A stretch of DNA of 64,000 nt. Origin: an uncultured Candidatus Saccharibacteria bacterium (GTDB lineage Bacteria; Patescibacteriota; Minisyncoccia; Phycocordibacterales; UBA918). A program made the position numbers and the translations under genes. The stretch spans positions 499-64,498 of the forward strand of contig CAZTWW010000001.1 in the NCBI GenBank assembly GCA_964618165.1, in the 5' to 3' direction. Below, piece by piece: positions 41,143 to 46,810 of this stretch. The notes beneath the pieces were generated by a model, which ran no database searches, had not been told where the DNA came from, and worked only from the letters and a program-made list of their open reading frames with translations. Positions within the stretch are counted from its first letter, which is position 1; every line of letters starts with the position of its first letter.

Positions 41143-41223
41143 CTATAGGATAACCTCAAAAAGTTGAAGCCGGCTTGAGTTTGTGGGTTTATATTTTGAG
41201 TCTAGCGCGGTATACTCAGCAGC

Positions 41224-43368
41224 ATGATATTTGACCTCTCAACCGAAAAGACGCCGGCGGGCGATCAGCCACAGGCGATTGAACGTCTCGTTGCTGGTGT
41301 CCGCGCCGGGAAGCGTCACCAGACGCTGCTTGGTGTCACTGGCTCTGGTAAGACCTTCACGGGAGCGAATGTTATCGCACAGATCGAGAAGCCAACCCTC
41401 GTCATAGCCCACAATAAGACCCTGGCTGCTCAGCTCGCGCAAGAGTACCGTGATTTTTTCCCGAACAATGCCGTCCATTACTTCGTTTCGTACTACGACT
41501 ACTACCAGCCAGAGGCATATATGCCGACGAGCGATACCTACATCGAAAAAGAAGCGCAAATCAATGAGGAGATTGATCGTCTCCGTCACGCCTCAACTCA
41601 GGCTCTCCTTACCCGACCAGATGTGATCATAGTGGCATCAGTATCGTGTATCTACGGTCTCGGCTCGCCAGTAGAGTACGAGAAGAAGCACAAGAAGATT
41701 GAACGAGGCTTTCCTATTACGCGGACAGATATGCTCCGTCTCCTTATCGATATGTACTTTGAGCGGACAAATGCCGATCTTACGCCGGGGCAGTTCCGTG
41801 CTATTGGAAATACGGTTGAAATCATGCCGACGAATGAACGGGTTATTGTCCGCCTTGGGTACCAGGGGGCAGCCGTCTCCTCAATCACGAAGATTGATGC
41901 GGTGACGCGTGAGATTATTGCCGAGCTCGACGTTTTCTTCCTCTTCCCAGCCAAGCACTTCGTCTCACCTGAAGACGAGCGTAAGGTGGCATATGAGGAT
42001 ATCAAGCTTGAGCTTGAAGAACAGCTGAAGAAATTCAAAGCTGAAGGTAAGCTTCTCGAAGCGGAGCGTCTTCGTCGGCGCACCGAGCACGATCTCGCGC
42101 TTATTCGAGAGGTCGGATACTGTAACGGTATTGAGAATTATTCACGACACTTTGATCGGCGAAAGCCGGGTGAGGCGCCGTACACGCTCATCGACTATTT
42201 CCCGCATCTCCCCGATGGTACACCAGACTTCCTCACCATTATCGATGAGTCTCACGTAACCCTGCCACAGATTGGTGGTATGTATGCTGGTGACCGTAGT
42301 CGTAAGGATACCCTGGTCGACTTTGGATTCCGTCTTCCGAGCGCAGTTGATAATCGTCCGCTTAAGTTTGAAGAATTTGAAGCCAAGATTGGTGAGTGCA
42401 TCTATACGTCAGCGACACCCGGCAAGTATGAGTTCGAGCATTGTTGTCCGATTGGTGCAGTCGGCGAAGGGAAGCAGAGTAAGAGTGGTACTGAGAGTCA
42501 AGCAGCCTACTTCCGTGGAGTAGATATCAATCGCTGTGTGGCAGAAGGCGATGTGGTTGAACAGATTATCCGCCCGACTGGGCTTATTGACCCCTATATC
42601 GATATGCGCCCAGTGACCGAGAAGGGTGATTACCCAGGTCAGATTAAAGACTTCATTGAAGAATCGGTGAAGGTCATTGCTGGTGGCGCTCGTGTTCTCA
42701 CGACTACGCTCACTAAGAAGATGGCAGAAGATCTCTCCGAGTTCCTCACCGAACGTGGTATCAAGACGAAGTATATCCATAGCGATGTAGAGACCCTTGA
42801 GCGTATCGAGACCCTCACTGATTTCCGTAAAGGGAAGTTTGATTGTCTCGTGGGGGTTAACCTCCTCCGTGAAGGACTCGACCTCCCTGAGGTAGAGCTC
42901 GTCGCAATTCTTGATGCCGATAAAGCGGGCTTCCTCCGCAGTGAGACCGCGCTCATTCAGACTATCGGTCGTGCTGCCCGTAACGTAAATGGACGCGTCA
43001 TTCTCTATGCTGATGAGATGACTGATGCGCTCACCTACGCGGTCAATGAAACTAACCGTCGTCGTAGCCTCCAGATGACCTACAACGAAAAGCATGGCAT
43101 CACCCCTAAGACTATTGCGAAGGAGATTAAATCAATTGCCGACCAGCTCCGTACCCAGCACGATGAGACGGTTGATACGATGCTCAAGGTCGATATGGAG
43201 CTCTTCAAGCGAAATCCCGCCAAGGTCCTCAAGGAGAAACGTCAGCAGATGGCAGATGCTGTCTCTATCCTCGATTTTGAAACAGCCGCTATCATCCGCG
43301 ACGAAATTGCCTACCTTGAAGCCGAAGCCGCCGGCAAAACCAAAAAATCAAAGAAAACCCTTATGTAA
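41224..43368 (+). CDS. uvrB: Excinuclease ABC subunit B (UvrB)
   Basis: 'LLGVTGSGKTFT', beta-hairpin region, helicase motifs 'DESHVT' and 'TATPG', and a C-terminal UVR motif 'LDFETAAIIRDEIAYLE'. 714 aa. Confidence 0.95.
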   Translation: MIFDLSTEKTPAGDQPQAIERLVAGVRAGKRHQTLLGVTGSGKTFTGANVIAQIEKPTLVIAHNKTLAAQLAQEYRDFFPNNAVHYFVSYYDYYQPEAYMPTSDTYIEKEAQINEEIDRLRHASTQALLTRPDVIIVASVSCIYGLGSPVEYEKKHKKIERGFPITRTDMLRLLIDMYFERTNADLTPGQFRAIGNTVEIMPTNERVIVRLGYQGAAVSSITKIDAVTREIIAELDVFFLFPAKHFVSPEDERKVAYEDIKLELEEQLKKFKAEGKLLEAERLRRRTEHDLALIREVGYCNGIENYSRHFDRRKPGEAPYTLIDYFPHLPDGTPDFLTIIDESHVTLPQIGGMYAGDRSRKDTLVDFGFRLPSAVDNRPLKFEEFEAKIGECIYTSATPGKYEFEHCCPIGAVGEGKQSKSGTESQAAYFRGVDINRCVAEGDVVEQIIRPTGLIDPYIDMRPVTEKGDYPGQIKDFIEESVKVIAGGARVLTTTLTKKMAEDLSEFLTERGIKTKYIHSDVETLERIETLTDFRKGKFDCLVGVNLLREGLDLPEVELVAILDADKAGFLRSETALIQTIGRAARNVNGRVILYADEMTDALTYAVNETNRRRSLQMTYNEKHGITPKTIAKEIKSIADQLRTQHDETVDTMLKVDMELFKRNPAKVLKEKRQQMADAVSILDFETAAIIRDEIAYLEAEAAGKTKKSKKTLM

Positions 43369-43372
43369 CAGT

Positions 43373-43400
43373 GCCCTCCCTAGGCCGGTCCTAGGGAGGG
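43373..43400. repeat. Palindromic element CCCTCCCTAGG-ccggt-CCTAGGGAGGG (copy 1)
   Basis: A perfect 11-bp-arm hairpin lies 5 nt after the uvrB stop. A near-identical copy is at 44036-44062. Confidence 0.7.
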
Positions 43401-43440
43401 TGTTTACAGTAACAGTAACGTACAAAAACTAACTATTACT

Positions 43441-43581
43441 ATGCGACCATATCATAAGTCATCATATGTGGGAGGGATTGCGTTCGGACTGGTATTTATC
43501 GGAATTATTTTTGGCTTTAAAGGTGTTGTTATTGCTGTAAGTATTATAATTTTTCTTATGTACCGAGCATTTAAGAGGTGA
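43441..43581 (+). CDS. Possible 46-aa hydrophobic miniprotein (MRPYHKSSYVGGIAFGLVFIGIIFGFKGVVIAVSIIIFLMYRAFKR)
   Basis: I translated this ORF manually. It has a single TM helix and a basic C-terminus and lies between the two palindromic elements. No SD is present, but TATTACT directly precedes the ATG, so it could be leaderless. Speculative. Confidence 0.3.
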   Translation: MRPYHKSSYVGGIAFGLVFIGIIFGFKGVVIAVSIIIFLMYRAFKR

Positions 43582-43687
43582 GTTGATAACATGCAAGAAG
43601 CATAGCTGTTGCTAAAATAGACTGCTAGCAATTGAGCATTGTCTTAAAATACGTTACAGTACTTTTGGATATAAAGGAGGTATAATC

Positions 43688-43996
43688 ATGACCACACTGA
43701 CTCATCGTGGACTTATCTTGGCAGGTATTGGTCGAGAGGTGGACTGGAGGCGTCGCTACCGGACACTCGTCCATATGTCTGTCCGACACACGATATTCTG
43801 TCGGACCCGGATTGGTCTACCGGCGCCTACCTACCAGCAAGTCAAAGTGATGCTTCGTCGTCATGCGATGTTCTATTTTGGTGTCGGTACCTTGCGTGAA
43901 TGGCTGGTCGAAATGCGTGCGAATCGTGATTACTTTGAACACTGTGAGAGTTTTCCGAATGCTGCCGACGACGACCTCATACTGTCTAACGACTAG
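43688..43996 (+). CDS. Hypothetical protein (102 aa), Arg-rich, unknown function
   Basis: A strong SD AAGGAGG plus TATAAT lie upstream. An intrinsic terminator follows at 44006-44038. Confidence 0.6.
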   Translation: MTTLTHRGLILAGIGREVDWRRRYRTLVHMSVRHTIFCRTRIGLPAPTYQQVKVMLRRHAMFYFGVGTLREWLVEMRANRDYFEHCESFPNAADDDLILSND

Positions 43997-44005
43997 CATC
44001 TAAAG

Positions 44006-44038
44006 CACCCGGGTAATTACCCGGGTGTCGTCTTTACC
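44006..44038 (+). terminator. Intrinsic terminator after the 102-aa ORF
   Basis: Hairpin CACCCGGGTAATTACCCGGGTG followed by a TCGTCTTTA U-tract. Confidence 0.7.
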
Positions 44039-44062
44039 TCCCTAGGCCGGTCCTAGGGAAGG
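44036..44062. repeat. Palindromic element CTCCCTAGG-ccggt-CCTAGGGAAGG (copy 2)
   Basis: Its 22-nt core is identical to the copy at 43373-43400. Together the two copies bracket the small-ORF cassette between uvrB and uvrA. Confidence 0.7.
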
Positions 44063-44155
44063 TTTGCTGCTTTTTATAATGACTGCTGTCTGCTATACTC
44101 ATACCTATAAACCACTACCACCGTGCAGTGGCGTTTCGTATATTTATTGGGGTAA

Positions 44156-46810
44156 TTGTTGACTATGGCACAAGACAAAAAAGGTGACGGGAAGAAGGTC
44201 ATACGGACCAATATGGACGATCGGTCACAAAAGATCATCGTGCGTGGTGCTCGTACCCACAACCTCAAGGACATCACAGTCGAAATGCCACGTGGTGCCA
44301 TGGTCGCTATTACCGGGCCATCTGGCTCTGGTAAGTCTTCACTCGCGTTTGACACCATCTTTGCGGAGGGGCAACGTCGCTATGTTGAATCGCTCTCACC
44401 ATATGCTCGCCAATTTCTCAACAAAATGCAGAAGCCTGATGTCGATGAGATATCTGGTCTCTCACCAGCTATCTCGATTGACCAGAAGTCGGCGAGTCGT
44501 AATCCACGCTCAACAGTGGCGACCATTACCGAAATCTACGACTACCTCCGTATCCTCTACGCGCGTGTCGGGCAACCGTACTGTCTTGATGTTGATGTCC
44601 CGATCCAGAAGATGTCTCAGGACGAAATCCTTCGGGTTGTCCTTGATTCTATCGAGTCTAAAGAGGTGAAGAGTGCCACGAAAGCCCAGTCACAAAAGGT
44701 GATGGGGATTGAGGTCTCGAAGGGACGGGTGGTGGTGTTTGCACCAGTGGTGGTCGGACGTAAGGGTGAGTACTATCAACTTCTTTATGATCTCCTTGGT
44801 AAAGGCTTTGAAACGATTAAAGTGGACGGGGAAGTGAAGCAACTCCGTGAACGGATTGAGCTGTCAAAAACGAAACGACATGACATCGATGTACTCATCG
44901 ACGAGATTTATGTGAGTGAATTCACCGATGATCCGAAAGGTTCGCGTGAACGTCTCTCAGAGGCAGTCGAGGTCGCCTTAGGTCTTGCCAATGGTCTTGT
45001 TAAAATCGAGTCGCCAGACGGTACCTCACGCATGCTCTCGGCGAAGTTTATTTGTCCAGTTGATGGGTCATCGTTCCCTGAGGTAGAACCTCGTCTCTTC
45101 TCGTTTAACTCACCGTATGGTGCTTGTCCTGAGTGTAACGGACTCGGTGTGGTTGGTATCTTCCAGAGTGATGTCTGTCCGGTCTGTGAAGGGGCACGAC
45201 TCCGTAAAGAAGCACTTCGTGTCTACCTCGGTGGTAGCGACAAATCACTTGGTATCAATATCGTGCAGTTCACTGCGATGACCGTCAAGGAAGCGACGAA
45301 GTTCATTGAGGAACTGAAACTCACGAAGCATCAGCAAGAAATCGCCTGGCCGGCACTACGTGAAGTTATCGAACGCCTCGAGTTCATGAATAATGTTGGT
45401 ATTGAGTATCTTACCCTTGATAGACGAGCTAACACGCTCTCCGGTGGCGAGGCGCAACGTATTCGTCTCGCGTCTCAGCTTGGATCGGGCCTCGTGGGTG
45501 CGCTGTATGTGCTTGATGAGCCGACTATCGGCCTCCATCAGCGCGATAACGACCGCCTCATCAAGACACTCACCGAACTCCGTGACCTCGGTAACACCAT
45601 CATCGTGGTTGAACACGATGAAGACACGATCTATGCCTCAGACTACATCGTCGACATTGGCCCTGGCGCCGGCGTGCATGGAGGTAACGTGGTGGTCTCT
45701 GGTTGGCTTGAGGACCTCCTTAAAGCGAAGAAGAATGACTCTGGCTCATCGACCTTGGCCTACCTGCGACACGAAAAGAAGATTCAGATACCAGACCGCC
45801 GAGATAGCGAAAAAGGCTCTATCAAAATAAAAGGAGGAAAAGCCTTTAATATCAAGAATCTCAATGTCGATATCCCGCTCGGACGCCTCATCTGTGTCAC
45901 CGGTGTATCTGGTTCGGGTAAGTCGACCTTCATGTACGAAATAGTCGATAAGAACCTTAAGGCTCGCCTCGAGAAAAAGTACCGCAGTCCAAAGACGTAC
46001 AACTGTTCATCGTTTACCGGGACTGAGTACCTCGGTCGCTCAATCCTCATTGACCAATCACCAATTGGTCGTACGCCACGCAGTAACCCAGCGACATACA
46101 CTGGCTCCTTCTCGCACATCCGTGACCTCTTTGCCGCCACTGGCGAGGCCCGTGCACGCGGGTGGAAGCCCGGCCGCTTCTCGTTTAACGTGAAGGGTGG
46201 TCGCTGTGAAGCGTGTCAGGGTAATGGAGAGATTGCGGTAGAGATGCACTTCCTCCCGACCGTGTTTGTGGAGTGTGATGTGTGTGAGGGTAAGCGCTTC
46301 ACGAAGGAGACACTTGAGGTCACCTACCGCAAAAAGAATATCCACCAAATCCTCGAGATGACCATTGAGGAGGCGTATGAATTCTTCAAAGATGTTCCAG
46401 CCATCGAGGAGCGCCTCAAAACCCTCCTCGATGTCGGACTCTCGTACCTGAAGCTTGGTCAGAGTGCGACCACGCTCTCTGGCGGTGAGGCACAGCGTGT
46501 AAAGATTGCGTCTGAGCTCTACAAACCACATACGCAGAAGACCCTCTACATGCTTGATGAGCCTACCATTGGTCTCCACTACGATGATGTCCGTAAACTC
46601 ATTGAGATTCTCCAAGAGCTCGTGAATAAGGGGAATACGGTGATGGTGATTGAGCACAACCTCGACCTCGTGAAGTGTGCCGACTACATCATCGATATTG
46701 GCCCTGAAGGTGGCGCTGGTGGCGGTGAAGTCATCGCCAAAGGGACACCCGAGCAAGTGGCCGAAAATCCGAAGTCTCATACCGGTAAATACCTTAAGAA
46801 CGTGCTCTAG
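44156..46810 (+). CDS. uvrA: Excinuclease ABC subunit A (UvrA)
   Basis: Two ABC modules ([10 protein letters not shown] and [10 protein letters not shown]; [12 protein letters not shown] and [12 protein letters not shown]), zinc-finger cysteines (CPVDGS...CPEC; CEACQG...CDVC) and the C-terminal 'HTGKYL'. A TATACT -10 lies at 44094-44099. Confidence 0.95.

Follow-up and report, generated by a model that had tools for sequence, protein, structure and literature searches.

Probable REP hairpins on either side of a small resident gene between uvrB and uvrA in a Patescibacteria genome

Two genes of nucleotide excision repair, uvrB and uvrA, lie next to each other in a 64,000-nucleotide (nt) stretch of contig CAZTWW010000001.1 (the window), which comes from an uncultured Candidatus Saccharibacteria bacterium of the Patescibacteria, or Candidate Phyla Radiation (CPR). 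The spacer between them holds two copies of a palindrome and two short open reading frames (ORFs), one of 46 and one of 102 amino acids (aa). An earlier reading of the same sequence, called the original prediction below, took the interval for a small cassette. It proposed either an insertion resembling repetitive extragenic palindromic (REP) elements or miniature inverted-repeat transposable elements (MITEs), or a small addiction module. The features of the locus, all on the plus strand, are given below. The palindrome copies are called REP1 and REP2, and sequences used for comparison are given by their L numbers.

41224-43368, plus strand: uvrB, 714 aa, with the Pfam domains UvrB, UvrB_inter, Helicase_C and UVR.
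43373-43401, plus strand: REP1, hairpin CCCTCCCTAGG-CCGGT-CCTAGGGAGGG, beginning 5 nt past the uvrB stop codon.
43402-43631, plus strand: AT-rich segment, about 33% GC against about 50% in its surroundings.
43441-43581, plus strand: orphan ORF for a hydrophobic 46-aa peptide, isoelectric point (pI) 10.6, grand average of hydropathy (GRAVY) 1.13.
43632-43660, plus strand: weak candidate promoter of the 102-aa gene, TTGAGC-17-TACAGT, matching at 8 of 12 positions.
43674-43680, plus strand: Shine-Dalgarno (SD) sequence AAGGAGG of the 102-aa gene, 7 nt 5' of its ATG.
43688-43996, plus strand: 102-aa gene for a basic, helical protein, pI 9.6.
44005-44028, plus strand: terminator-like hairpin of the 102-aa gene, perfect, GCACCCGGGT-AATT-ACCCGGGTGT, with a weak T-tail (TCGTCTTTA).
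44036-44063, plus strand: REP2, one-bulge hairpin in the same orientation as REP1, followed by TTTGCTGCTTTTT.
44088-44132, plus strand: promoter and leader of uvrA, conserved between species, with GTCTGCTATACT as extended -10 and then CCACTACC-N5-GCAGTGG at 44112-44131.
44165-46810, plus strand: uvrA, 881 aa from a conserved ATG, with the Pfam domains UvrA_inter and ABC_tran.

The length of the spacer depends on where uvrA begins. The 787 bp given in the original prediction hold if uvrA starts with the TTG at 44156. In four relatives the start of uvrA aligns with the ATG at 44165, so the spacer most likely measures 796 bp.

The locus is found at 99-100% identity in 11 contigs of metagenome assemblies (accessions beginning JACCD or JACCE), all with the gene order tgt, uvrB, 46-aa ORF, 102-aa ORF, uvrA, uvrC, ddl. 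The same architecture also occurs in a strain with 97.3% identity. The organism is present as well in the samples from which GCA_013558435, GCA_013573075 and GCA_013566075 derive. UvrB is at most 65% identical to that of any species representative, the top matches being Parcubacteria/Paceibacterota metagenome-assembled genomes. A scan of genome contigs with UvrB returned no relative above 65% and thus no usable spacer comparison from that set. Within about 10 kb of the spacer no recombinase or integrase is present; the neighbours are tgt, uvrB, uvrA, uvrC, ddl and similar genes.

The original prediction was right that the same palindrome brackets the interval, although its coordinates were 1-2 nt off. 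The two copies form a 27-nt direct repeat (43375-43401 and 44037-44063) with 26 of 27 positions identical and starts 662 bp apart. The hairpin core of the repeat is CTCCCTAGG-CCGGT-CCTAGGGAG. In REP1 the arms are 11 nt long (43374-43384 and 43390-43400) and fully complementary around the 5-nt loop CCGGT, with a folding energy of -24.2 kcal/mol (z -3.7); the hairpin of REP2 contains one bulge. A search of the window with the 19-nt core, allowing up to three mismatches, returns two sites, which are the known copies, where chance would give 0.02. The looser pattern CCTAGG-N3-9-CCTAGG again finds just these two. Both copies adjoin the 3' ends of genes. REP2 begins 8 nt past the hairpin of the 102-aa gene and stands directly before the T-run and the extended -10 of uvrA.

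CCTAGG occurs four times in the 64 kb against 14.5 expected, all four within the two REPs, and with 67 occurrences where 249 are expected CTAG, too, is strongly depleted. The palindrome is thus composed of a word that is otherwise avoided in the window.

Further copies can be found outside the uvr locus. The exact 21-mer TCCCTAGGCCGGTCCTAGGGA was scanned across a metagenome collection and occurs on three further contigs (L092, L094 and L095), with five exact copies in all; it is absent from viral contigs. The original prediction had allowed that the palindrome could be a ubiquitous REP element with no specific tie to this unit. It does occur elsewhere, but it appears to be a low-copy element and not a ubiquitous one. 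On L095 the palindrome is intergenic, flanked by the genes for a PD-(D/E)XK nuclease and an MGMT-like protein, and no gene for a REP-associated tyrosine transposase (RAYT) is present. On the other two contigs it accompanies genes of RAYT type.

On L094, a 225-aa ORF runs into the palindrome, which overlaps its stop codon. The ORF matches Pfam Y1_Tnp (PF01797, IS200-like) with 43.9 bits at a cut-off of 23. An inverted REP doublet lies 21 nt 5' of its start codon. L092 is a portion of contig L099, which carries a second transposase of this type, P0090 (222 aa). Here the exact palindrome lies over the stop codon, and a variant REP and a 42-nt perfect doublet palindrome lie upstream. The RAYT stop codon is thus inside the 3' REP palindrome on both L094 and L099. 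The two transposases are 56% identical over the part compared, yet their REP core is the same. The motif GGGTG stands 0-4 nt 3' of the hairpin at REP1, at L092, at the 3' copy of L094 and at the L094 doublet; possibly it belongs to the REP element.

The transposase family has more than 7000 homologues, some of which are labelled "REP element-mobilizing transposase RayT" by one source. Among 17 homologues H82-F-H84, the YIHLNP block, and Y138 and Y142 in YLYAYIHLNPVK are invariant. A search of PDB with the single sequence gave nothing. More distant homologues in L106 and L105 have their own CCTAGG-core hairpins on both sides, CCCTAGGCC-N-GGCCTAGGG and GACCTAGGGT-N-ACCCTAGGTC, respectively. Hairpins of this kind are absent from all of about 80 unrelated uvrB loci. 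L099 and L106 share the neighbourhood efp, sigma factor, recA, ftsK, RAYT, LCAT, rplJ/rplL; on the short contig L094 just a PG-binding-like upstream neighbour is visible. The RAYT genes occupy 10001-10669 on L099, 892-1569 on L094 and 10001-10687 on L106.

Three indirect observations suggest that the RAYT contig and the window may come from the same genome. P0090 is present in three assemblies that also carry the uvr locus (JACCDI, JACCEA and JACCDY). Tetranucleotide correlation with the window is 0.69-0.76 for L092, L094 and L095, and chunks of the window itself give 0.65-0.85. In addition, the P0090 contig has the gene-start style of the window, TATACT-N6-7-ATG.

In the literature, REP/RAYT systems are characterized by an IS200-related HUH/Y transposase, by REP doublets flanking its gene and by one REP type for each RAYT (PMC3337134, PMC5581495). 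The palindrome of the uvr spacer is classed as a REP on the basis of these same traits. As in the systems of E. coli and Pseudomonas, a short extragenic palindrome recurs at several loci and at gene 3' ends; an IS200-related HUH/Y1 gene is flanked by it on both sides, inverted doublets included (L094, L099); and each homologous transposase has its own hairpin variant. RAYTs are vertically inherited, single-copy genes at a fixed chromosomal position, and the synteny between L099 and L106 may point to such a position here. The systems differ in other respects. REPs number tens to hundreds for RAYT groups 2 and 3 and about 12-14 for groups 1 and 4 (PMC5581495), whereas a handful of copies were counted here. 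Two copies in 64 kb and five exact 21-mers fit only the low-abundance groups. The transposase is about 222 aa long instead of about 165 aa and scores under the NCBI RAYT equivalog cut-off, and the host is a CPR lineage. A search limited to one literature collection found no description of REP/RAYT in CPR or Patescibacteria. Nor do the window copies resemble REPINs (REP doublets forming hairpins), as they are direct singlets 662 bp apart; inverted doublets occur solely beside the RAYT genes. REP singlets are regarded as decaying remnants (PMC3337134). The 97%-identical strain is consistent with this, since its REP2 is changed at 3 of 27 positions and its REP1 at 0-1.

As predicted, an ORF of 102 codons with a strong SD is present at 43688-43996. 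Evidence that it is a real gene is provided by a homologue of the same length in L091, with 69% amino-acid and 63% nucleotide identity. Differences between the two fall 26, 18 and 70 times on the three codon positions (pN 0.21, pS 0.90), and such a strong third-position bias marks the ORF as a gene. HMMER, run exhaustively over 1.84 billion representatives, returned just four members of the family. Only three further relatives came from it, with 32-34% identity in the family alignment and 35-44% over the matched stretches. All members share the invariant motif W-R-R-x-[YF]-R-x-x-V-H-x-S-x-R. Searches of Pfam, NCBIfam, PADLOC and PHROGs with the 102-aa protein gave no match, and a fold search with its AlphaFold2 model (predicted local distance difference test score, pLDDT, 86) gave no fold relative.

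The position of the gene is conserved. In L096 the order is uvrB, 102-aa homologue, a 119-aa membrane ORF, uvrA, uvrC, ddl. In L097 the 3' end of uvrB is followed by the homologue and uvrA. In L098 and L091 the homologue is again followed by uvrA, and these contigs stop short of uvrB. The family therefore lies directly 5' of uvrA in 5 of 5 species, and between uvrB and uvrA in all three whose contigs reach uvrB. In more distant Parcubacteria, a profile hidden Markov model of the family has no match in the uvrB-uvrA region. Judged by this distribution, the 102-aa gene is a resident, vertically inherited gene specific to a narrow Patescibacteria clade, and its position predates the divergence of the species. 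In the comparison of the spacer with relatives that the original prediction had proposed, homologues lie upstream of uvrA in four other species, and one relative, L097, lacks the 46-aa segment.

The small protein has evolved much faster than its neighbours. UvrA is 85-95% identical to that of the relatives, and UvrB is 81% identical to that of L096 and 89% over the 44 visible C-terminal residues of L097, against 32-69% within the 102-aa family. In the 97%-identical strain (L107/L108), substitutions cluster at the 3' end and stop codon of the gene (43994-44003), where the C-terminus reads …LILSND in one and …LILTNY in the other; the other approximately 98 codons contain one change.

The 102-aa gene has its own SD, a putative terminator and probably its own promoter. 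The homologues likewise retain the SD. The candidate promoter TTGAGC-17-TACAGT scores under the threshold of the promoter scan, and its region aligns with the spacer of L097. A dedicated terminator had also been predicted; the perfect hairpin at 44005-44028 agrees with this, but its T-tail is weak. In the relatives, hairpins of different sequence occupy the same place.

The AT-rich segment beside REP1, about 230 bp long, contains the 46-aa ORF. In L097, the nearest relative with a visible spacer, 88 nt separate uvrB from the 102-aa homologue. These align over their whole length to positions from about 43600 to 43687, roughly the final 90 nt of the corresponding 319-nt spacer in the window. The segment is therefore absent from L097, and it has no similarity elsewhere in the sequences compared. 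An 11-nt inverted repeat around it (43412-43422 and 43650-43660) was considered and rejected, being no better than many chance pairs.

The 46-aa ORF is possibly a real gene, with about even odds. Its in-frame codon score is 0.287 per codon, and 46-codon windows of real genes score 0.35 +/- 0.14. Only 0.3% of off-frame windows score higher, and its own two other frames score about -0.53. The peptide has a single match among 5.8 billion clustered sequences, which is itself. It matches nothing in Pfam, NCBIfam or PADLOC, reaches only E 0.03-0.1 with PHROGs families of no assigned function, and shows no similarity to the 119-aa multi-pass membrane ORF of L096 (6291-6650). Neither an SD nor a -10 hexamer (TAnnnT) at leaderless distance stands upstream. 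The original prediction thus pointed to an ORF that exists, but the leaderless start it proposed has no TAnnnT hexamer, although 17 of 42 genes of this organism have one.

Variation around this ORF is patchy. The 97%-identical strain has no single-nucleotide polymorphisms (SNPs) in the 46-aa ORF, its divergence being unevenly spread over the region, and strain SNPs are too few for a test of selection. In the variant L008, 10 SNPs fall within 94 nt (43549-43642), from the end of the 46-aa ORF into the putative promoter region of the 102-aa gene. No differences occur in the REPs, in the 102-aa gene or in what remains of the spacer. Such a cluster suggests a patch of recombination or a hypervariable stretch.

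Taken together, these data are best explained if the palindromes are REP hairpins that flank a resident gene, small and specific to the lineage. The spacer would then be a composite of three unrelated things and not a mobile or addiction cassette, a reading to which we give a probability of roughly 70%. The 102-aa gene would have been inherited vertically, already in place upstream of uvrA before the species split. The two singlet REPs would have been spread by a RAYT, a domesticated transposase which, by analogy with known systems, would recognise the hairpin in single-stranded DNA and insert copies of it into intergenic DNA; the RAYT described above may have mobilised them. The AT-rich segment beside REP1, with its orphan 46-codon hydrophobic ORF, would be a species-specific addition. 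Positions just past gene 3' ends may be harmless ones for REPs, where the hairpins could aid transcription termination or the stability of mRNA 3' ends; a terminator function of the hairpins would fit these positions. The proposed insertion is supported in part. The palindromes are of REP type and can be tied to a RAYT-like Y1/HUH transposase, but the idea of one inserted unit finds no support, since the 102-aa gene is resident and the interior is single-copy in the sequences searched.

A number of observations weigh against this composite reading. The copy number, two in 64 kb, is very low for a REP family. Assembly JACCDI holds three exact copies, two of which flank the uvr interval, and with so few copies a chance clustering is less comfortable than it would be in a REP-rich genome. 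A physical link between the RAYT and the window is lacking, and the 64 kb encode no Y1 transposase. The L094 transposase scores 43.1 bits against the NCBIfam model "REP-associated tyrosine transposase", under its equivalog cut-off of 80 bits, and the profile of the RAYT family finds ISDra2 TnpA alone in PDB, at E 0.37. The two window copies have the same orientation, as do the ends of IS200/IS605 elements. Finally, L097 has half a REP, AACAGT-CTCCCTAGGGTGG, directly past the uvrB stop codon in the slot of REP1, and L091 has a 23-nt hairpin, identical to the REP at 15 of 23 positions, in the slot of REP2. The L097 sequence reads as a REP from which the loop and one arm were lost between two CCTAGG direct repeats. 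The REP slots may thus have been occupied for a long time, and the REPs could be as old as the 102-aa gene. In L096 the slot equivalent to REP2 holds another palindrome, GTTTCGCCTCATA...TATGAGGCGAAAC.

These points bear on a rival explanation, in which the interval is a non-autonomous IS200/IS605-like element that carried the 46-aa and 102-aa ORFs as cargo and was moved in trans by the RAYT, anciently or recently. IS200/IS605 elements such as IS608 and ISDra2 end in hairpins of the same orientation, and a Y1 HUH transposase moves them. Similar hairpins bound the non-autonomous derivatives, known as palindrome-associated transposable elements, and the near-identical, directly oriented REPs resemble these ends. 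The proportion of JACCDI copies that flank the interval and the presence of remnants in both equivalent slots also speak for such an element. The interval differs in having no transposase inside, in having an interior without a second copy in any sequence searched, and in the fact that the 102-aa gene stays directly 5' of uvrA in four other species (L091, L096, L097, L098), none of which has a full REP at the locus. No empty or alternative site occurs in at least 11 contigs or in the 97%-identical strain, and a blastn search for a phage or plasmid origin of the spacer gave no match. The supposed cargo is also not one unit, as L097 lacks the 46-aa segment. We consider such an element improbable; an ancestral REP-bounded unit that delivered the 102-aa gene nevertheless keeps a small chance through the slot remnants and the decay of REP2. 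Integron cassettes likewise have ORFs between imperfect palindromes of the same orientation. Their attC sites measure about 57-141 bp and contain extrahelical bases, in contrast to the near-perfect 27-nt hairpin of the window, and here the neighbours are housekeeping genes, no integrase is nearby and the gene is syntenic in relatives.

The addiction module of the original prediction finds little agreement with the data. In this view the 46-aa ORF would encode a membrane-damaging type I toxin that an antisense RNA keeps under control. In its size, strong hydrophobicity and basic ends the peptide does resemble Hok, Fst, TisB and Ibs; its codon usage is typical of the genes of this genome, and one promoter-like site is found on the antisense strand inside the ORF (43532-43504). 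Such sites are expected 2.3 times by chance, however, and an Rfam search returned no RNA. The absence of homologues and of family matches, the missing expression signals and the absence of the segment from L097 speak against a toxin, and the partner ORF is a conserved resident gene of five species that is not antitoxin-like. We regard this alternative as quite unlikely. A third possibility is a local duplication of an ordinary intrinsic terminator, in which case the palindromes would be unconnected to any mobile element. Both are stable hairpins past gene 3' ends, and a T-rich run follows REP2. However, on other contigs the identical 21-mer is found beside Y1 transposase genes and at an intergenic site of no relation to this one, homologous transposases of other genomes have related hairpins at their flanks, and the terminators of the orthologous genes in the relatives are unrelated in sequence, which makes this explanation very improbable.

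Five species share a conserved region 5' of uvrA, which consists of GTCTGCTATAMTC (extended -10), about 12 nt, and ACCACTAC-N5-6-GYAGTGGC, and is found at 44088-44132 in the window, 487-531 in L091, 6776-6818 in L096, 679-721 in L097 and 340-382 in L098. The leader motif is unique within the window and forms a perfect 7-bp stem in L098; it may act as an operator or, alternatively, as a hairpin in the 5' leader. Many genes of this genome look leaderless, to judge from gene starts across L001 and L099. A TAnnnT hexamer, mostly TATACT, stands 4-10 nt 5' of the start codon in the 17 genes mentioned above (chance 10.7%), and just 5 of the 42 called genes have SD-like motifs, the 102-aa gene being among the few with a strong one. 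The start of uvrB is of the leaderless type, GGTATACT-N7-ATG (region 41206-41226), and uvrA would be a leadered gene in this largely leaderless setting.

The composite reading removes a false lead, as the DNA-repair locus would contain neither an addiction module nor a mobile cassette. It also documents a REP hairpin and a RAYT-type transposase in the CPR, at an unusually low copy number. CPR genomes are tiny and are thought to hold few repeats. The spacer provides three leads of its own: a clade-specific small protein encoded 5' of uvrA, a conserved uvrA leader hairpin and an orphan membrane-peptide ORF. It is conceivable, though we think it rather doubtful, that the 102-aa protein represents a new family of small, basic and helical proteins which evolves fast and is tied functionally to nucleotide excision repair in one Patescibacteria clade, for example as a candidate nucleic-acid-binding regulator acting on the uvrA leader hairpin CCACTAC-N5-6-GYAGTGG, immediately 3' of the uvrA promoter. 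If this were true, the 102-aa protein would replace an SOS-type control.

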